64,000 nt of DNA, from NCBI GenBank assembly GCA_963797095.1, contig CAWCNY010000001.1, forward strand, positions 64,001 to 128,000, in the 5' to 3' direction. The stretch is from an uncultured Chloroflexia bacterium. GTDB taxonomy: Bacteria > Chloroflexota > Chloroflexia > QHBQ01 > JADMIH01. Positions 1,475-47,877 of the stretch are shown here, piece by piece (the stretch's first letter is position 1; the number at the start of each line of letters is the position of its first letter). The notes under the pieces were generated by a model, which saw nothing but the letters and a program-made list of their open reading frames with translations, did no database searches and had not been told where the DNA came from. Both the position numbers and the translations under genes were made by a program.

Positions 1475-1591
1475 GCCCCGCAATGGCCTACTTTCCCACA
1501 GCCGGGTAGCTGAAGTATCATCGGCGCTGTACTGTTTCACTTCCAGGTTCGGGATGGGGCTGGGTGGGTCCAGTACGCTCTGACCACGGAA
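1475..1591 (-). rRNA. rrf: 5S rRNA
   Basis: Conserved CCCATCCCGAACCTGGAAGTGAA...GCCGATGATACT...GGGAAAGTAGG. Complementary processing arms flank it at 1441-1468 and 1597-1624. Confidence 0.97.
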
Positions 1592-1794
1592 CAAAATTCC
1601 CCTTCTCTCTCTTTCTCCTCCCTCCATGCGTTGGGAGTACCTAAGAGAAAAGGCAAGCAGACGAATTGAGCGGTTTTGGGTAACTGAGTAACCTATTTGC
1701 GTCTGTGATGAAATTGTTTGATGCTTGCTCTTGCTTGTGCTTACCTTTTGCAATCCTCTTGAGGAGGATGAACAGAGGGGGTAAGCCGAAAGCG

Positions 1795-4985
<3,191 letters not shown>

Positions 4986-5174
4986 CTAACTCTCAGCCTA
5001 CCCCCTCCGTTCACAACTCCGACAGGAGGTGAATGAAGGAAGCACGCAAAAAGCGCATCAAACAATTATTTCATTCGTAGCGCAAATGTGGTTACTCATA
5101 TCACACACTTGATCGGTAATCTTATGTGCGAAATTGTATCCCAATTTTGCTTTTCTTCGTTGCTTGCTATTCTC

Positions 5175-5191
5175 TTGGTAAGGTGCTGGCA
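5175..5191 (-). promoter_or_regulatory. boxA antitermination element in the 23S leader
   Basis: Minus-strand GCACCTTACCA resembles the 16S leader boxA (GAACCTTAACAA, ~8686-8697). Confidence 0.65.
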
Positions 5192-5463
5192 CCCCTAGGT
5201 GCTCACTCCCTGAGGAGCCTGTCAGCCTTGTGACTGCCAGTCTTCGACCTTGTGCAGGGCGAGGAGCGGAAGTCGTTGCGGCTTATTTTGTATTTTGGTG
5301 TTTAGTGAGCTTGCAGATGTGGTCGAATGGCAACAAAAGAGGCTTGGGCACTCGCGCCTCAAGCCTTGGCGGCTGTTGGTATGCGAGATGGCCTATCTGG
5401 TTGTGGCCTCAACTATGTGCATGCTTTGCTCTTTCTTTGCACCATTTCCCAGGCGCAACACTA

Positions 5464-5492
5464 AGTATACTAAAGCCTCAGGCCTTTGTCAA
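5464..5492 (-). promoter_or_regulatory. sigma70 promoter dedicated to 23S-5S
   Basis: TTGACA-17bp-TATACT on the minus strand. Confidence 0.85.
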
Positions 5493-5623
5493 GCAGATTT
5501 AAGCCCTTTTCAATCGATTTGCCAGGGATCATTGTTCAATTTGCCAGGGATCATTGTTCGCTAATCAAGTTCAGAGTGCTTATGGAGTTTGGTTGGCATA
5601 GCATATTCAAGTGACATGAAAAT

Positions 5624-6574
5624 GTGTGTCCCATATGCGATAATATTGAGGAACATGGCACTCCTTGGATAGTGCTGATGAGAGACAAGCAACAAACATT
5701 CGCATTGTTCTTTCCCGAGCCTTTGGCCAATATAGACCAGGCTAATCTCCTTATGTCGCGCGTTCAGCGCGTCGAAATGTTACTCAGTGTGGCGCGCAAC
5801 AATCCGGCCCAGCTAAATTGGCTTGCAGCACACGGCATCCGGGCTATTTTTCGTGTAGAAGAGCCATCGCGGGGGAATATCGCCGAGGTGGCTGCTTCTT
5901 ATTACCGACCTGACGGGCGTGTTAGCGTTACTCATAGGCTTGCTGAGATCAGGGCAAGCGCGCCCGGTCTGACTATCGAAGCTGTTATCGCGGGTAATGA
6001 ACCCGAAGTTGAATACGACCTCCGCCGCAACACCCCCACCTGGGGCGACCTACCCGAGGCTACTTTTCCGCAGGGACGGGTCTGGGAACACCGCTTTGCT
6101 GTCAGTGAATTGCGCCGGTTGCTGGCCCCTACTGTGGTGGTAGCGCCCGGGTGGTCGCATAAGCAGCAAACACCACGCGATGCTCCCGAACCTGGACGTG
6201 CCACGTGGGGCCGCATACTGGCGGACGTATACAACCAGGGCCCCGCTGCCATGCACGCGTATTGCATCAACTGGCTCGGCAGTGAAGACGAACACCGCTT
6301 GCTTTGGTGGGTGAAGCACGAGCTTGAGCGGATCCATAGCGACGTGTGGGTTGATGAGATCAATGTGGTAACTCATACACTCGATAGCGAGCCTGTTGAG
6401 AGGATGCGAGCGGTGTTGGGGATGTATGACCTGATCGCGGCCCAGGACTGGTCATCGGTGATAAAGAGCTTCTGCCCGTTCGTAGCAAACGGGCGATCTG
6501 ATCAGGGGTGGTCAAACATGATTATGAATGACCGGAACTGTTATAGCCTGCTGGCGCAGTGGATTCAGACTTGA
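5624..6574 (+). CDS. Glycoside hydrolase clan-A-like TIM-barrel protein inside the 16S-23S spacer (start probably 5672/5678)
   Basis: Long ORF with a GNEP acid/base motif, MHAY, and a VWVDE nucleophile-like motif. Confidence 0.7.
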   Translation: MCPICDNIEEHGTPWIVLMRDKQQTFALFFPEPLANIDQANLLMSRVQRVEMLLSVARNNPAQLNWLAAHGIRAIFRVEEPSRGNIAEVAASYYRPDGRVSVTHRLAEIRASAPGLTIEAVIAGNEPEVEYDLRRNTPTWGDLPEATFPQGRVWEHRFAVSELRRLLAPTVVVAPGWSHKQQTPRDAPEPGRATWGRILADVYNQGPAAMHAYCINWLGSEDEHRLLWWVKHELERIHSDVWVDEINVVTHTLDSEPVERMRAVLGMYDLIAAQDWSSVIKSFCPFVANGRSDQGWSNMIMNDRNCYSLLAQWIQT

Positions 6575-6578
6575 GGTT

Positions 6579-6633
6579 GGTGAATCAAAACAGCGCAGCC
6601 GGTACAAAGACCGTTGCGCTGTTTTGATTCACC
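6579..6633. terminator. Long hairpin, probable bidirectional terminator between the GH gene and tRNA-Ala
   Basis: GGTGAATCAAAACAGCGC...GCGCTGTTTTGATTCACC inverted repeat directly between the convergent 3' ends. Confidence 0.75.
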
Positions 6634-6635
6634 GG

Positions 6636-6708
6636 TGGACCTGAGGAGACTCGAACTCCTGACCTCCGCCGTGCAAAGGCGGCGCTCTCCCAGCTAAGCT
6701 ACAGGCCC
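6636..6708 (-). tRNA. tRNA-Ala(TGC)
   Basis: Cloverleaf GGGCCTG...TT TGC AC...GGAGTTCGAGTCTCC CAGGTCCA. It is followed by CCG, so CCA is not fully encoded. Confidence 0.97.
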
Positions 6709-6720
6709 ATACTGCCCGTT

Positions 6721-6749
6721 ATTATATCAACTCCGGACCTACTCCGCAA
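6721..6749 (-). promoter_or_regulatory. sigma70 promoter for tRNA-Ala
   Basis: TTGCGG-17bp-TATAAT with an extended TG, ending 12 bp upstream of the tRNA. Confidence 0.8.
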
Positions 6750-6758
6750 ACTACGCTC

Positions 6759-6786
6759 AAGCAAAAGGCACCCTCGGTAGGGTGCC
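6759..6786 (-). terminator. Intrinsic terminator downstream of 16S rRNA
   Basis: GGCACCCT-ACCG-AGGGTGCC followed by TTTTGCTT on the minus strand, just after the 16S processing-stem arm. Confidence 0.7.
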
Positions 6787-6999
6787 CTGGCCTTGGCCAA
6801 CTGAAGGGTGGAGACAAGCACAGAGAACGAGACGACAAGAAAGGTGTTCATCTTGAGCAAGGCTGATGGGTTAGAACAGCTTTGCTTTTGTTAGTCAATG
6901 ACTAACAGGTAGGTTACGCCGGTCCGAGGACCGACGGTTGACCTGGGATCGTCCGAACTTGGAGTGAGCAAGCTCACCAAGCGAGGAACAAACTCCCTA

Positions 7000-8559
<1,560 letters not shown>

Positions 8560-41589: not shown

Positions 41590-41663
41590 GGGCGGTTAGC
41601 TCAGTCGGCTAGAGCGCGTCGTTGACATCGACGAGGTCGGGGGTTCGAGCCCCTCACCGCCCA
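41590..41663 (+). tRNA. tRNA-Val(GAC)
   Basis: GGGCGGT TAGCTCAG...CGTCG TT GAC AT CGACG...GGTTCGAG CCCCT CACCGCCCA; CCA not encoded. Confidence 0.97.
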
Positions 41664-41932: not shown

Positions 41933-43189
41933 ATGGCCGAAAGATCTAAACAAACAAAAATCCTGGACCCCCAGGTGGCGCAAGTGCAGCCCCAAACGAA
42001 GCCGCTTACTATTAGCGGCCTTACGTCGTTGGACCGCCTGACCCGCCTTTATGATGTCATCCGGTCAATTACTTCTATTACTCAGCTTGACAAGCTTCTT
42101 GACCTGATCCTTGCCTCGGCTACCGGTATGGTAGGAGCGCGCGGTGGCTTCCTTATGCTGGTCAACCCTGAGACAAACGAATTGAAGTGCGAAGTGACCT
42201 CCGGCGGGATGGCAGCCGGCCTCAGAGGCGCGGTGCTCAAAATCGATGAGAGGACTGTGCCAGGTATGGTCGCCTCCAAAGGCAAGCCCTACCGGGAGAA
42301 CGATATATCGCGCAGCCCCTTCTTCGCCTCCCAGAAGCGCAACCCCTCAGGTGACTATCCGATCCACAAGCTGATGTGCGTTCCTCTCAAAGTGCAGGAT
42401 CGGATCACAGGAGTGGTGCAAGTTCTCGACAAGACCACCGGCGAAGATTTCAACGACGACGATCTACGCCTCCTGCAAGCGATGGCCGATTCGGCAGCTA
42501 TCTCGGTTGAAAACGTGCGTCTCTACGAAGCGGAACGCAAAAAGAGCGAGTTGCTTAGCCAGGCGTATGAGGACTTGCGCGCCAACTATGACGGCACTCT
42601 GCAAGCTCTTACCGGTCTCCTAGACGCCCGCGATACCGCCACCAGAGGGCACAGCAATCGCGTGGTGGCCCTTACTATGCGTCTCGTACAGGAAATAGGT
42701 ATAACAGATCCTCATCGTGTCCGCTCTATCGAGCTTGGCTCACTATTGCATGATGTGGGTAAGATCGGCGTTCCAGATGCCATCCTCCGCAAGCCCGGCC
42801 CTCTCGATGGGGCGGAGTGGCAGCAGATGCGCGCTCACCCTGAGATCGGTTACCGGCTTCTGAAGCACATTGAATTTCTCAAGGACGCGCTGCCCGTGGT
42901 CCGCTACCACCACGAGCGCTTCAACGGCACAGGGTATCCATATGGCCTTGAAGGGAGGCAGATACCCTTTGAAGCGCGTATATTCGCTGTTGCCGATGCT
43001 TTCGATGCCATCGTCTCGGAGAGACCTTACAAGAAGCCCCGTACATACGAGGAAGCGGTCCATATCTTCACCGAGGATAAAGGCCATTTCTTCGACCCCG
43101 AAGTTGTAGAAGCGTTTCTGAGAGTTCCTAAAGAGGATTGGCTACAGATCCTCGAGGAGTCCCGCGAGACTTCGCTCTCTGAAGTCTAG
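41933..43189 (+). CDS. GAF + HD-GYP cyclic-dinucleotide phosphodiesterase
   Basis: GAF domain, then HS.RV, LHDVGKIG, HHER.NG.GYP and ADAFDA...RPY. Confidence 0.93.
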   Translation: MAERSKQTKILDPQVAQVQPQTKPLTISGLTSLDRLTRLYDVIRSITSITQLDKLLDLILASATGMVGARGGFLMLVNPETNELKCEVTSGGMAAGLRGAVLKIDERTVPGMVASKGKPYRENDISRSPFFASQKRNPSGDYPIHKLMCVPLKVQDRITGVVQVLDKTTGEDFNDDDLRLLQAMADSAAISVENVRLYEAERKKSELLSQAYEDLRANYDGTLQALTGLLDARDTATRGHSNRVVALTMRLVQEIGITDPHRVRSIELGSLLHDVGKIGVPDAILRKPGPLDGAEWQQMRAHPEIGYRLLKHIEFLKDALPVVRYHHERFNGTGYPYGLEGRQIPFEARIFAVADAFDAIVSERPYKKPRTYEEAVHIFTEDKGHFFDPEVVEAFLRVPKEDWLQILEESRETSLSEV

Positions 43190-43767: not shown

Positions 43768-44149
43768 TGATCCTGTTACCTCCTGATATCCATAATGGTG
43801 TTTGCATTACAACGAGAGTGCGAGGTGTTATCACCGCCCTGGAGATGCCTGTTTGGGCATATCAAGCTTCCCAGTCTGCTACATCTCGTCGTATGCGTAG
43901 AATAATAATATCATAGTCTGCCATCGAACCAATAATCTTTCGCAAGTACGCCTGGCGCGTACCTGTCGCCAGGCTTCCAAAAAAGAGCGTTATGCACATG
44001 GCAAGTACCTTTGGCGGCGATATCCACCCCCTAAAGTACGCTTTTTGAAGCCTATTCAAGCAACAACTTGATACGCTAAACTGAATATGCTAGCACAACA
44101 ATAGAACCTATGGTGTTACATACCATCAGATAAGACAAGGAGCAACAGG

Positions 44150-44467
44150 GTGACCAATCTAAGCGGTGTTGAAACGGCAGCCAGGCTTTCTCAGCAAACA
44201 ATCGAAGATTATATAGAAGCATGGGTAGCCAGGGAAATAGAGCGTGTAGCATTCCGCCGGGGTAAAAGCGATCCACGAAGCCTCGCACGCTCTCAAGCAA
44301 AGCTCATGTGTGCCACCCTGGAGGTTGCCAAAGACTGCACGGACGCCGATCACTATCTGGCCTGCAAACAGAGCCTGGACAGACAAGCCTACATGCTGTT
44401 GCGCATCGAGGAAAGCTATAGCTTCGCCTCTTTCCTCTCCGCACCGGAAGAAATCGCATATCGCTGA
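44150..44467 (+). CDS. Hypothetical protein
   Basis: AAGGAG RBS before GTG; followed by a hairpin at ~44510-44539. Confidence 0.6.
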   Translation: MTNLSGVETAARLSQQTIEDYIEAWVAREIERVAFRRGKSDPRSLARSQAKLMCATLEVAKDCTDADHYLACKQSLDRQAYMLLRIEESYSFASFLSAPEEIAYR

Positions 44468-44672
44468 TCATGAGGGGTCGATAGTAAAGCACTTATAGTA
44501 AACGGTGCATCAGAAGAGGCTCGGAAGAGCCTCTTCTGCTTGGCCCTCGCGCACAAATCCCAATCGATCTCGTGTCGAACCTCTGATCGCCCTATGGCCA
44601 CCTAATTGCATATTATGATTGACTCTCACCCATACGCGTGCTAAAATAGTAGTGATAGCGAGAGGGAAAGCA

Positions 44673-45308
44673 ATGGGCGAGCACATCGGTGGGCGACGTT
44701 TACGCGCTGCGGAAGGGTCGCGCTTCTATGTCGACCTGTTACGTGCGGCGGGGTTGGCTGTTGTCCTGGGCCTCATAATGGAGGCTTTGCTGGTAGTCGG
44801 TGGTCAGGAACCCGCCAATCTCACCAGTCTTCTCGATAACGGCCTGTGGCCTTTGCTGGTTTGTATGACGCTTGCCGTAGGTCAGGCGATTTCTTCTGCC
44901 AACCCATCCACCGCGGGTACATTTTCCCTCTTGATCACCCCTCTGGCGTTCCTGGTCGCCAAAATCGCCCCAAAAGGCGTGCGCGATCTCCTGGCAGGCG
45001 TCTCCCTTGGAAACTACCTCTCTGCCGATCTTCTTCTGGAAGCGGGATTGCGTGCTATTGAATATGCTGTGCTGGCGGCAGTTCTCGCCTACTTCTGGCG
45101 GCAACAAGGGGCAGGCATATTAATGCATCTTGGCCTGGGCCTGGGAATTGGTGTTCTGTTCGGCCTCTTTATCGCGGCCTTTGTATCACCGCCCTCTTTC
45201 CTCAACTGGGTTGAGGCGGAGGTGGTCTTTCCTACCGGCTGCGCCTTGATCGTCTACGTGTCGCAGACCCCAACCCAATTGTTACCAGACGACGATATGC
45301 TTACCTGA
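44673..45308 (+). CDS. Hypothetical multi-pass membrane protein
   Basis: About six hydrophobic helices with coherent coding. Confidence 0.7.
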   Translation: MGEHIGGRRLRAAEGSRFYVDLLRAAGLAVVLGLIMEALLVVGGQEPANLTSLLDNGLWPLLVCMTLAVGQAISSANPSTAGTFSLLITPLAFLVAKIAPKGVRDLLAGVSLGNYLSADLLLEAGLRAIEYAVLAAVLAYFWRQQGAGILMHLGLGLGIGVLFGLFIAAFVSPPSFLNWVEAEVVFPTGCALIVYVSQTPTQLLPDDDMLT

Positions 45309-45351
45309 AAAGGCGAGCAAACACAGAATACCTTTCATGCCGGAATCGGGT

Positions 45352-45648
45352 AAAACAAAAGACCCGAACAGTCCTTGCGGATCGTCCGGGCTTTTGTCCT
45401 TCAAGAGGTCTGCAAACTGAGCAGGCGCGCCACCTGAACCGAAGTCCCTGTGAAGTCCACCTTTCAATGGACCTGCGACCCGTACTCACATAACCGATGA
45501 GCCGTCTCCGAAGAGCGATCTCTCACGACCCCCGTCTCCGGTGCGTTCCCGGCGAACCGTTCACGCGCTCCGGCGGGTGGTCCGGTACTTCTCTCTGCGC
45601 CGTCGAAGCGGCTAGCCGTCTGTACCGCAGTCCCTGTAGTTCCGAAGT
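45352..45648 (-). ncRNA. Candidate stand-alone ~300-nt structured RNA
   Basis: Perfect TTGACA-17-TATAAT promoter (45655-45683), terminator at 45355-45397, several UUCG/GAAA-capped hairpins, no credible ORF. Confidence 0.7.
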
Positions 45649-45654
45649 AGCTTG

Positions 45655-45683
45655 ATTATAGAGCGGCTCCAACTCGCTGTCAA
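45655..45683 (-). promoter_or_regulatory. Consensus sigma70 promoter
   Basis: TTGACA GCGAGTTGGAGCCGCTC TATAAT. Confidence 0.85.
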
Positions 45684-45754
45684 TGCCCATCCTCCAAAGT
45701 TTTCCACATCCGTGCAACCCCTGGAAGACCGGCATTGGCAGCTTGCAATAGTGT

Positions 45755-47131
45755 CTAGTTCGTGATGTCGCTGGCTCCGGAGGGCCACGCCTGCAAGGTC
45801 AGTGTCAGGTCCTGGTGCTGACCATCCCGAACGATAGTGAGGGTAACTTTGTCGCCGGGCTGCTTGTTGTTCAGGTAGCTGGTCAGGTCGCTGACCGCCC
45901 CTACCTTCTGACCGTCGATAGCTACGATTATGTCTCCTATCTGAGTGGTTGAGGTAGCTCCGGGTTGGCCTGTGCCTCCCTCGATACCCGAGATAGTAGA
46001 AGCCTTGAGTCCTGCCTGGGCAGCGGGGCTATTGGCTGTGACATCCATTACCAGCACGCCCCGGCTCACCGGCAGATTGTATTCCTGTTGTAGATCCTGG
46101 CTGATCTCAAGCCCTGCGATACCGATCCATGGCCTTTGTACCTGGCCGCCCTGCTCGAGCTGGCTCAGCAGTGACTTTACCTGGTTGATAGGTATAGCCA
46201 GTCCCACTCCGGTGAAGCCTTCTACCGGGCTTTCGATCATGGTGTTGATGCCTATTACTTCACCTTCGCTATTGAGGAGCGGTCCGCCGCTATTGCCGGG
46301 GTTGATTGCCGCATCCACCTGGATCAGGCCGTTCAGCGACCTGCTGCCGGTGGATCCTGCATCAGTTCGGTTCAGGCCACTCACGATACCCGACGATACG
46401 CTCTGATCGAGGCCGTAAGGGTAGCCTATGGCGATCACCTCGTCTCCCACCTGTGCGGTGGACGAGTCGCCCAGCGTTGCAGGCACCAGCAGGTCGCTCG
46501 GGGCGTCAACCTTGATCACCGCCAGATCGTCCTGCGGCGCGGTTCCTACTACTGTCGCGTCGTACTCACTGCCGTTGGAAAACTCCACCTTGATCGATGT
46601 GCCATTGTCGATCACGTGGTTGTTGGTGACGATGTAGCCGTTCGTATCGATGATTATGCCTGTGCCTGTGGCTTCGCCGCTGGCCGCAAACCTGCCGTTA
46701 CCGCTGCGCACGATAGAGGTAATCCGCACTACGGACGGTGATACCTTCTGGTATACACTGCCGATGGTGATCGTGTTGCTCTGTGCCACCGTCTCTGAAC
46801 TGCCGCTCGTGGCTATTTCGCTATTGCTGGCGGTCGATGTCGGAGCTGTAGCCACCGCATTGGAGTTCGCGTTGGTTGCCAGCATGACGGCCTCGGCTCC
46901 CGCGCCGCCCAGCACTGTTCCGAGTACGAGGGCACCGGAAACCATGAGGCCGAGCACAAGCGGTTGCTTCTTGCTCTGTTTCTGTGGGTGTATGATTGCG
47001 GCTTCTTCATGGTGTTCCGGCATGTATGGCCGTCGAATATAGTTCGGCTCCAGGGGGGTGGTTTGTGGCCCCCCTGAGCCGGTATTGCTGTAAATCTCGT
47101 TCTGAGTATTTTGCGTGTTATCGCTGTCCAT
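45755..47131 (-). CDS. htrA: HtrA/DegP trypsin-like serine protease with PDZ domain
   Basis: TM anchor, TNNHVI, DLAVIK, DAAINPGNSGGPL and a PDZ domain. Confidence 0.95.
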   Translation of the reverse strand: MDSDNTQNTQNEIYSNTGSGGPQTTPLEPNYIRRPYMPEHHEEAAIIHPQKQSKKQPLVLGLMVSGALVLGTVLGGAGAEAVMLATNANSNAVATAPTSTASNSEIATSGSSETVAQSNTITIGSVYQKVSPSVVRITSIVRSGNGRFAASGEATGTGIIIDTNGYIVTNNHVIDNGTSIKVEFSNGSEYDATVVGTAPQDDLAVIKVDAPSDLLVPATLGDSSTAQVGDEVIAIGYPYGLDQSVSSGIVSGLNRTDAGSTGSRSLNGLIQVDAAINPGNSGGPLLNSEGEVIGINTMIESPVEGFTGVGLAIPINQVKSLLSQLEQGGQVQRPWIGIAGLEISQDLQQEYNLPVSRGVLVMDVTANSPAAQAGLKASTISGIEGGTGQPGATSTTQIGDIIVAIDGQKVGAVSDLTSYLNNKQPGDKVTLTIVRDGQHQDLTLTLQAWPSGASDITN

Positions 47132-47439
47132 TATTCTAATCTCCGTTTCTGTTCCTGTTTATAGCTTGATCTCATGTTCAAGACCGATTGCTATGTTCTC
47201 TCTATATCTATCTTACAGCGTAAGGCTTAATGTTAGCTGATTCATTTATTAATGTTTGGTGTAGAACCTACCCTGCGAGGGCGCTTGGATCAGCTACTAT
47301 TGGCCGTATGACGTTACATCGGGCGGTGCGGTATAATCAATTCAGGAACACAACATATCAAGGATCTCAAAATAGAAGCGCACAGCGCGAAACGTCCTAA
47401 ATGGGAATGGTAAGATAGGGTACAGGAGAAGCAGTACAT

Positions 47440-47877
47440 ATGATGCGAACAGTTTGCAAATCGAAGATTCATGGGGCAACCGTCACGGAAGCCAACCTCA
47501 ATTACGTAGGTAGCTGCACCATCGATCCCACCCTGATGAAAGCCGCCAATATTGTTCCTTACGAGTGGCTTCACGTGGTCAACGTCAATACAGGCTCTCG
47601 CTTCCAGACCTATGCTATACCGGGCGAAGCAAGCTCAGGCATAATCGCTCTGAATGGGGCTGCTGCCCGCCTCGGGCACCCCGGCGACAAAGTGATCATC
47701 ATGTGCGCGGCCTCTATCACCGAAGAAGAGCTTACAACGTTTCGCCCGCACCTGGTTTTCGTGGACGACCACAACCGGATAATCACCCCTACTGTAGGGG
47801 ACCGCTCCTGGAACCTTGACGACCTGGGCGCGGAATCGGAGATCAATGACGCTCTGCGCGAGATGTCGCAGGCGTGA
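47440..47877 (+). CDS. panD: Aspartate 1-decarboxylase
   Basis: KSKIH.ATVT.ANL.Y.GS; NGAAARL...GD.VII. Confidence 0.96.
   Translation: MMRTVCKSKIHGATVTEANLNYVGSCTIDPTLMKAANIVPYEWLHVVNVNTGSRFQTYAIPGEASSGIIALNGAAARLGHPGDKVIIMCAASITEEELTTFRPHLVFVDDHNRIITPTVGDRSWNLDDLGAESEINDALREMSQA

Follow-up and report, generated by a model that had tools for sequence, protein, structure and literature searches.

The minus strand of a 64,000-nt stretch of genome from an uncultured Chloroflexia bacterium (assembly GCA_963797095.1, contig CAWCNY010000001.1, positions 64,001 to 128,000; hereafter the window, in whose numbering unprefixed positions are given) carries a self-contained gene encoding a structured non-coding RNA (ncRNA) of approximately 295 nt, equipped with a consensus sigma-70 promoter and a strong intrinsic terminator. 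The RNA, here called the large form, is an enlarged member of a many-copy, order-specific family of small RNAs (sRNAs) of approximately 80–95 nt that was previously undescribed; it is a short form whose first hairpin gained approximately 210 nt of folded RNA, arranged in two domains (A and B). The full reading, in which the locus is a stand-alone ncRNA gene, an enlarged orthologue of one member of an sRNA family with DnaA boxes, and a gene whose transcription is controlled by DnaA, is regarded as probable.

The limits of the gene are set by its promoter and terminator, both of which had been proposed in a first-pass annotation made from the sequence (TTGACA-17-TATAAT, a start near 45648, and a terminator at 45355-45397) and both of which were confirmed here; the start agrees with the 5' end predicted below. 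The features of the transcription unit are as follows:

45678-45683, minus strand: -35 hexamer TTGACA
45655-45660, minus strand: -10 hexamer TATAAT
45352-45648, minus strand: predicted transcript of approximately 293-297 nt, with its 5' end placed at A45648 and its 3' end in the U tract 45352-45358
45352-45400, minus strand: intrinsic terminator, a 12-bp stem capped by a GCAA loop, preceded by an A-tract and followed by a U-tract, with a sequence common to the whole family

The two hexamers (45683-45655) are separated by a spacer of 17 nt and together scored 12/12 in the promoter scan, making this the sole perfect site among five promoter-like sites in 44000-47500, a region for which shuffled sequences gave a mean of 2.6 sites at a score of at least 9/12. 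A45648 lies 7 nt past the -10 hexamer and is the predicted 5' end on the family pattern, in which ACUUC, or a sequence close to it, stands 6 nt after the -10 hexamer in every listed member. Folded alone, 45350-45400 forms an 18-pair hairpin that includes an A-tract/U-tract extension (dG -27.2 kcal/mol, z = -5.8, equaled by 0/200 shuffles). Among 16 family members, six of the 15 pairs of the terminator show compensatory changes. A simple terminator scan of 44000-47500 did not flag this terminator, and the five terminator-like sites that it returned all lie elsewhere on the plus strand.

The 299-nt stretch folded singly reached -123.5 kcal/mol (z = -2.1), with 3/200 shuffles as good; this is only modestly above chance, and the evidence for structure therefore has to come from homologues. 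Four full-length sequences, aligned with MAFFT and folded with RNAalifold, gave 88 predicted pairs, and compensatory changes were seen in 20 of these. Ten sequences, of which nine are distinct, were also aligned to a covariance model (R1) of 254 positions from which the terminator was excluded. The 70 pairs of this model were 94.2% paired; shuffles gave 81.4%, and slid partners gave 35-42%. Among the nine distinct sequences, 36 of the 70 pairs were changed on both sides, a number reached by 0/500 shuffles. The consensus fold is multibranched, with 16 helices, four branch points, and no central bubble, and it is built from the following parts:

45399-45647, minus strand: closing stem P1, CUUCGG (45647-45642) with UUGAAG (45404-45399); helix 1 (96% paired), also present in the short forms
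45410-45639, minus strand: stem P2, CUACAGG (45639-45633) with UUUGCAG (45416-45410); helix 2, 88.5% paired
45492-45632, minus strand: domain A, closed by GACUG (45632-45628) with CGGUU (45496-45492) and bearing three arms; helices 3-11
45627-45583 (UUCG-capped), 45582-45527, and 45525-45498, minus strand: the arms of domain A in the covariation-supported model
45419-45487, minus strand: domain B, in which GAG/CUC and GGGUCGC/GCGCC close two hairpins; helices 12-16
45472-45455 (GAAA loop) and 45447-45436 (UUCG loop), minus strand: the hairpins of domain B

Compensatory changes are spread over both domains. In domain A they affect three of six pairs in helix 4, 3/4 in helix 5, 4/5 in helix 8, 3/4 in helix 10, and all three in helix 11; in domain B, helix 14 is compensatory in six of its seven pairs. 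The middle arm of domain A holds the hairpin typical of the family, CGG-UUCG-CCG (45559-45550), and P1 of the short forms is 75% paired. The collection of homologues and the covariation check thus upheld the multibranch fold that had been read from the single sequence, and the helices GGUAC/GUACC and GACC..CC/GG..GGUC, the UUCG hairpins, and GUCCAUU-GAAA-GGUGGAC that had been named in it are all present in the covariation-supported model. The closing stem that had been named with them, GGACUGCG/CGCAGGUCC, is absent from the model, in which GACUG pairs with CGGUU and the true closing stems are P1 and P2.

The large form has a narrow distribution. BLAST against 61 related genomes found the full length in three of them (G017, 84%; G015, 72%; G014, 70%) and, in addition, many matches limited to the last ~50 nt. 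R1, which scored 260 bits on the window (45399-45650), added three more diverged copies (G025, 74 bits; G004, 71 bits; G018, 50 bits), so that the large form is found in 7/26 genomes (species) of one genus and in four of the ten high-quality genomes among them. Elsewhere in the order, R1 returned nothing convincing beyond one partial match in G035 (23.8 bits, model positions 21-159), which was rejected as a homologue. Similarly, the invariant 5' 18-mer, searched with at most one mismatch in 401 genomes of the class, was found in the same seven genomes, always as an exact match; the reversed 18-mer used as a control also matched seven genomes, and one-mismatch matches alone would therefore not be specific. 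Among 185,579 species genomes, an exact 20-mer occurred in only three metagenome-assembled genomes, all titled 'Chloroflexia bacterium', and of 34 loci holding the 18-mer in metagenomes of the Joint Genome Institute (JGI), three were true homologues by R1 and the other 31 were chance matches. Phage and plasmid collections held nothing similar, and the terminator motif had no match in viral contigs. A new class of ncRNA in Chloroflexota had been suggested for the locus: the RNA is indeed new to Rfam, and a broad class it is not, having been found in 7/26 species of one genus and in none of the other 375 genomes among the 401 searched.

The BLAST matches restricted to the terminator proved to be small genes of the same family, and they relate the large form to much simpler RNAs. 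In the two genomes checked (G020, locus L029; G006, locus L010), an 88-nt gene stands directly after the homologue of a gene for a protein with GAF and HD domains, which is the orthologous position. The 88-nt gene shares with the large form its start CUACUUCGGA, the pre-terminator sequence GAAGGAACAAAAG, and the terminator, and its central hairpin CUGG-UUCG-CCAG-GAA has a counterpart in the large form, ACGG-UUCG-CCGG-GAA, at 45560-45546. The hallmarks of the family are a 5' ACUUC, the closing stem, the GGUUCGCC hairpin, the terminator, and, at a set distance before the -35 hexamer, a DnaA-box-like 9-mer (TGTGGAAAA/TGTGGATAA). The large form carries the 5' feature in full, with 45647-45642 pairing with 45404-45399, ACUUC 6 nt after the -10 hexamer, and ..GAAG/GGAG before the terminator, and it also has the family terminator hairpin, CCCGGAYGNUCC-loop-GGAYUGU..GGG followed by a U tract.

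An alignment of 16 short forms (A5) was used to build a second covariance model (R2). In each of the 25 other genomes of the genus, R2 found 4-16 copies, and it matched in 36/40 genomes of the order, the copies often lying in tandem clusters; in a sample of the class, it matched 17/21 genomes of the order against 1/130 outside it. This genome (G000) has ten matches, and the 3' part of the large form (45353-45451, 53.2 bits, E = 4.6e-10) accounts for one of them. Among mechanically called open reading frames (ORFs), no recurrent neighbor was found for these ten copies. The short RNAs fold as two adjacent hairpins: the 25 specified pairs of A5 are 88.9% paired, as high a value as none of 500 shuffles gave, and almost every base lies within one of the two long hairpins, whose loops are UUCG or GNRA tetraloops. 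Conservation of ACUUC and of its partner GGAGG/GAAGG extends to their sequence and is not limited to their pairing. A pattern search for units of box, promoter, and terminator returned 20 further ones, 19 of them of 76-96 nt and one of 161 nt.

The 161-nt member (L020 1721-1881, minus strand, in G036) is longer than the short forms and shorter than the ~295-nt large form, suggesting that the first hairpin tolerates insertions repeatedly. Tandem arrays of family genes 0.8-2 kb apart are exemplified by L006 1317-2340 (G020) and L014 1501-2968 (G021). In G020, two family copies flank a 179-aa ORF that was read from its sequence, without Pfam, as YciF/DUF892-like; in G021, a 296-aa low-complexity ORF rich in Gly, Ser, and Met stands between two copies. 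Another short form, in this genome (G000:C5:197895-197985, minus strand), lies 118 nt upstream of thyX on the same strand (L159:164-1078, minus strand; Thy1, 1e-58). A small ORF starting from an AUG in the terminator arm was considered and rejected, as several members, this large form among them, have ACG, AAG, or AGA in place of the AUG, and most such frames extend beyond the terminator.

Two further motifs stand upstream of the promoter:

45700-45708, minus strand: DnaA-box-like 9-mer TGTGGAAAA (reverse complement TTTTCCACA), 16 bp upstream of the -35 hexamer
45722-45727, minus strand: second motif CTTCCA, 13-14 nt before the box, recurring at most family promoters of the genus

Upstream of the -35 hexamers of the family, the 9-mer occurs as TGTGGAAAA, TGTGGATAA, TGTGTATAA, TGTGCAAAA, or TGTGTAAAA; TGTGGATAA is the reverse complement of TTATCCACA, which we take to be the general DnaA-box consensus. 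The box is present in 44/50 members, 16-17 bp before the -35 hexamer in the genus (g1) or 5-6 bp before it in families f2 and f3, two distances that differ by one helical turn. The six members without a box by pattern comprise two large forms in which it was found by eye, the 161-nt member in which it was found separately, and three boxless ones. Likewise, five of the seven large forms have the box at 16-17 bp by pattern, and the other two have it by eye with variant -35 hexamers. In this genome, 10/14 pairs of box and TTGAC within 30 bp are spaced at 4-5 or 16-17 bp. The spacers between the motifs are unrelated among family copies, which indicates that the motifs are under selection and were not recently copied. 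As for the second motif, CTTCC was found upstream of 29/36 promoters of short and large forms in the genus g1, and its fuller form, (C)CCTTCCA, occurs at most family promoters of the genus and is lacking from the order's two other families.

The same 9-mers are found at dnaA and nrdR. The 800 nt preceding dnaA contain 1-5 of them in 18/18 genomes of the order examined (a count that leaves out three loci and three partial hits), and in the genus a conserved group of boxes upstream of dnaA ends a few bases before a -35-like hexamer. In this genome, the box lies 3-5 bp before a -35-like hexamer at both dnaA and nrdR. The box is absent upstream of the seven stable RNAs examined (16S, two transfer RNAs [tRNAs], RNase P, transfer-messenger RNA [tmRNA], signal recognition particle [SRP] RNA, and 6S). 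Since the 9-mers cluster at dnaA and precede nrdR, we infer from the sequence pattern that the large form and the whole family are transcriptionally controlled by DnaA, and the upstream, in-phase position of the box suggests activation. DnaA regulon promoters are known from the autoregulation of dnaA and from nrd genes in Escherichia coli, Bacillus subtilis, and Caulobacter. Like these, the family promoters have a DnaA-box consensus next to the promoter, whereas the genes served here are ncRNAs and the box of the genus stands one helical turn further upstream (16 bp).

Six protein-coding genes of this genome also have the 9-mer 4-5 bp before TTGAC (C6:800250 [L108/L158], C1:552877, C2:169083, C2:410109, C6:684627, and C2:1207707), among them nrdR (Zn_ribbon_NrdR and ATP-cone), DUF2188, and CHAP-domain genes, and they may form a DnaA regulon. 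At G000:C6:341302-341355 (L107), three exact DnaA-box 9-mers occur within 60 bp, with further near-boxes seen by eye; this cluster is far from dnaA (C2:768145-769773) and could be an origin or a DnaA-titrating site.

The competing account that survives best accepts the RNA and its family and assigns the 9-mer to a factor other than DnaA or to an UP-like element, with the genes belonging to a stress or stationary-phase regulon that has nothing to do with replication. It draws on the frequency of TGTGGAAAA, which is not enriched genome-wide (60 seen against ~46 expected), on the second conserved upstream motif CTTCCA, which is no DnaA box, and on stress-type genes near members or box promoters, such as DUF2188 and, by reading, the YciF-like ORF of G020. 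We consider it unlikely, given that many members carry an exact copy of the universal DnaA-box consensus, TTATCCACA, that the same 9-mers lie upstream of dnaA in 18/18 genomes and also ahead of nrdR, and that the box is absent from the seven stable-RNA upstream regions.

Overall, the large form is most likely a stand-alone regulatory or protein-binding RNA under the transcriptional control of DnaA. A short RNA consists of two hairpins, the first closed by the 5' ACUUC(G/A) with ..GAAG/GGAG and the second being the terminator; in the large form, approximately 210 nt of independently folding helices, domains A and B, have grown inside the first hairpin. In the model proposed here, DnaA would bind the box, which precedes the -35 hexamer by one or two turns of the helix, and would control all genes of the family, the large form included, and the RNA would act in trans. 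A protein-binding scaffold or decoy appears more likely than a seed-pairing antisense RNA, as the stable tetraloops and few unpaired bases favor a protein-binding or decoy role over seed pairing; as a scaffold or decoy, the large form would owe an extra binding surface to its added domains.

Multi-copy families of regulator-dependent sRNAs are well known, such as Qrr1-5 in Vibrio, the csRNAs of streptococci under CiaR, and LhrC1-5 in Listeria. The present family resembles them in its paralogous sRNA genes, a shared factor site at a fixed promoter position, an intrinsic terminator, and a variable middle, and differs in that the shared site is DnaA-box-like, a genome may hold up to 16 copies, the RNAs are almost fully paired with no obvious seed, and one member is enlarged to ~295 nt with a multibranch fold. 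That the RNAs are antisense-type regulators pairing through a conserved unpaired seed, as in those families, would agree with the multi-copy architecture around a common regulator site that is known for them, and with the conservation of the 5' ACUUC and its GGAGG/GAAGG partner in sequence and not in pairing alone. It is nevertheless quite unlikely: the bases of the short forms are nearly all within two long hairpins capped by UUCG or GNRA tetraloops, and no target was found in a test confined to the dnaA leader, with no genome-wide search. In that test, all ten family RNAs of this genome were compared with 150 random genomic pieces, and 15-87% of the controls paired equally well; the measure is crude owing to the duplexfold structures, which span whole molecules. 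A sponge for CsrA of the CsrB/RsmZ type was also rejected, as the consensus loops are UUCG, GAAA, or GCAA instead of repeated GGA, and the GGA at the terminator tip in paralogues changes together with its pairing partner (the presence of CsrA was not searched).

A tentative and rather doubtful extension of the model is that the order wires approximately ten near-fully-paired paralogous sRNAs per genome to DnaA, through a box in activator phase at every promoter, and thereby broadcasts the amount or nucleotide state of DnaA at the post-transcriptional level, with one of them, in one genus, built up by insertions into a multibranch ~295-nt RNA that binds an additional partner, be it a protein or a small molecule. 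If true, the large form would be one of few instances where the stepwise origin of a large structured RNA out of a simple sRNA scaffold can be traced.

Hints of expression come from metatranscriptomes of two studies, which hold contigs of relatives of the RNA. In one, a contig of 273 nt (depth 22, ~88% alike) spans 45356-45578 and stops at the terminator; the 52 nt of it that lie outside this span are similar, judged by eye, to the more variable 5' part. The second metatranscriptome has four contigs of 154-225 nt, and two soil DNA data sets (X1 and X2) have one 151-nt contig each. Among the sequencing runs, none holds the exact sequence as RNA and none holds at least half of the words of the stretch; parts of it that are not covered carry no information. 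The metatranscriptome contigs are a weak hint of expression in relatives.

Several points weigh against the full reading of a DnaA-controlled, enlarged family member. The transcript evidence includes no transcript of the organism itself, the contigs being ~88% alike and from relatives; they show neither ends nor strand, and RNA libraries can hold DNA. The patchy occurrence of the large form, in 7/26 species and in 4/10 high-quality genomes, marks it as dispensable. Binding of DnaA at the box is deduced from the 9-mer and another factor could read the same sequence, to which the lack of genome-wide enrichment of TGTGGAAAA adds, as do L112, L116, and L019, which are family members without a box. 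No target or partner was found, the pairing test with the dnaA leader being negative. The nine-sequence alignment was fitted to the R1 structure and so favors that structure, and for this reason the four-sequence MAFFT/RNAalifold run serves as an independent check. Finally, four unpublished genomes (G016, G021, G022, and G033) are included in the genome counts (BLAST, R1, R2, 18-mer, box, and dnaA), and one of them, G021, supplies two rows of A5 and R2 as well as an example of a tandem array; none of the seven large-form genomes is among these four.

Comparison with known RNAs was made with Rfam 15. At gathering thresholds, the whole window gave only the ribosomal RNA (rRNA) operon and two tRNAs. 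With E <= 10, 45250-45800 gave only a chance hit to a microRNA (miRNA) model, located at the promoter and scoring 18 bits where the threshold is 90, and with E <= 1, no match was obtained in the RNAs of the seven homologue loci or of ten short-form loci; no family, 6S included, thus matches the RNA. The genome has its own stable RNAs elsewhere. A 6S candidate, its only 6S match, lies at G000:C5:51445-51627 (minus strand) and covers the full model (positions 1-187) with 42 bits against a gathering threshold of 46.4; RNase P RNA was found at G000:C3:144530-144902 (plus strand; 69 bits against 100, full model), tmRNA with 161 bits, and SRP RNA with 73 bits. The reported absence of tmRNA, RNase P, and SRP signatures from the locus accordingly stands. 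As the 6S and RNase P RNAs score below the Rfam thresholds, standard annotation would miss both in this lineage.

A relationship to 6S or to actinobacterial Ms1, in which the RNA would bind and sequester RNA polymerase as holoenzyme or core, had been inferred from the size of the RNA and from the segment 45587-45566. According to the literature on Ms1, this RNA is ~300 nt long and binds the core of RNA polymerase (PMC9130861). It is described there as folding like 6S, with a bubble at the center and, at the 5' and 3' ends, two short hairpins, and both Ms1 and 6S are described as a rod with a central bubble; the gene lies next to a HAD hydrolase or an oxidoreductase (PMC9130861). The same source states that Ms1 shows little sequence conservation and that Rfam holds an Ms1 family, representing Ms1 only near mycobacteria (PMC9130861). 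Measured against these features, the RNA of the locus is, like Ms1 and 6S, a stand-alone structured RNA that looks abundant, and length (~293-297 against ~300 nt) is the sole Ms1 feature that fits; the very strong promoter would also suit an RNA of this kind, and because Ms1 is little conserved in sequence, a failed homology search is weak evidence against it (PMC9130861). Such an identity is all the same very improbable. The conserved fold has 16 helices, four branch points, and no central bubble, in place of the rod with a bubble of 6S and Ms1; a full-length 6S candidate of 42 bits is found elsewhere in the genome; no match to 6S or any other family was obtained at E <= 10 in Rfam, which is stated to include Ms1; and the synteny differs, with panD, a pyridoxal phosphate (PLP)-like ORF, and the GAF/HD gene in place of the HAD hydrolase or oxidoreductase of Ms1 (PMC9130861). 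Furthermore, the large form derives from an 88-nt two-hairpin sRNA and is patchily kept in 7/26 species only, whereas a global regulator of RNA polymerase should be kept, and conservation of the segment 45587-45566 is among the lowest along the RNA, even when only the four nearest homologues are compared.

The conserved gene neighborhood is consistent with a separate transcription unit. The genes around the locus are as follows:

44619-45308, plus strand: convergent 229-aa ORF without a Pfam family, at this position in this genome only
45755-47131, minus strand: HtrA-type serine protease with PDZ (Trypsin_2, 4e-36; PDZ_2, 1.5e-17), between the RNA gene and panD
47440-47877, plus strand: panD (aspartate 1-decarboxylase) homologue (tblastn, 80% identity to the neighbor in G017)
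from 47954, following panD: conserved ORF, read as a PLP-dependent enzyme
41933-43177, plus strand: protein with GAF and HD domains, on the terminator side (HD_5, 3.5e-37; GAF_2, 4e-16)

The names panD and PLP-dependent enzyme rest on the reading of sequences instead of Pfam. In all seven genomes, the RNA gene lies between the GAF/HD gene, which converges on it from the terminator side, and the divergent panD with the PLP-like ORF. In the six other genomes, the GAF/HD gene is the immediate convergent neighbor of the RNA gene; in this genome, extra genes are inserted on both sides, including the 229-aa ORF and the HtrA-type protease, the latter not found at this position in the other six large-form genomes. 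The convergent downstream gene that had been noted at first is therefore real (44619-45308, plus strand), and since the gene on the terminator side is convergent in 7/7 genomes, the RNA gene is an independent transcription unit and not a riboswitch leader, as had also been held. That the unit is a cis-acting leader, attenuator, or riboswitch, or else a repeated mobile element like a miniature inverted-repeat transposable element (MITE), is barely credible, for although a same-strand ORF starts within ~120 nt downstream of 7/10 members here (by mechanical ORF calls) and the unit exists in many copies, the gene after the large form is convergent in 7/7 genomes, at least two downstream genes have, by eye, promoter-like sites of their own past the terminator, the inter-motif spacers are unrelated among copies with no terminal repeats seen, the locus is syntenic, and phage, plasmid, and viral collections hold nothing similar.

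Large structured bacterial ncRNAs whose function is unknown include raiA, OLE, ROOL, and GOLLD. The large form is like them in its complex conserved fold with many compensatory changes, its GNRA and UUCG caps, and its lack of coding potential; it differs in having no match to their Rfam models, in its much narrower distribution, and in an origin traceable to insertions into a small two-hairpin sRNA.

Little sRNA biology has been described in Chloroflexota. Full-text literature searches, in sources available in part, returned no report of this Chloroflexi family, no paper joining DnaA boxes, the DnaA regulon, and small RNAs, and no sRNA family with DnaA boxes. If the reading of the family as DnaA-controlled sRNAs holds, it would add two new RNAs that Rfam lacks, an easily recognized sRNA family (R2) and a large structured RNA (R1), and apparently the first sRNA regulon with DnaA boxes, linking replication status to RNA-based control. 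The sizes of ~80-95, 161, and ~295 nt would form a natural series in which a complex fold grows inside an sRNA hairpin. The family is confined to soil-type uncultured lineages.

Some minor observations were made at the locus and in the genome. In G017, a long near-perfect palindrome (L002 1893-2001) lies between the promoter of the RNA gene and panD; either strand of it gives a miRNA-like hairpin match (mir-1537, 43 bits each). Five partial matches to the DnaA ATPase model with identical scores (35.6 bits) were found in G000 in open frames of 385-401 aa, at C1:61564-61890 (just before the window), C1:571122, C3:45402, C3:561739, and C5:170155; they resemble repeated copies of a single helper ATPase of an insertion sequence, which we would guess to be IstB-like. 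The rRNA operon of the window occupies 1475-8559 on the minus strand (5S, 1475-1591; 23S, 1794-4986; tRNA, 6636-6708; 16S, 7001-8559), and a further tRNA is encoded at 41590-41663 on the plus strand.

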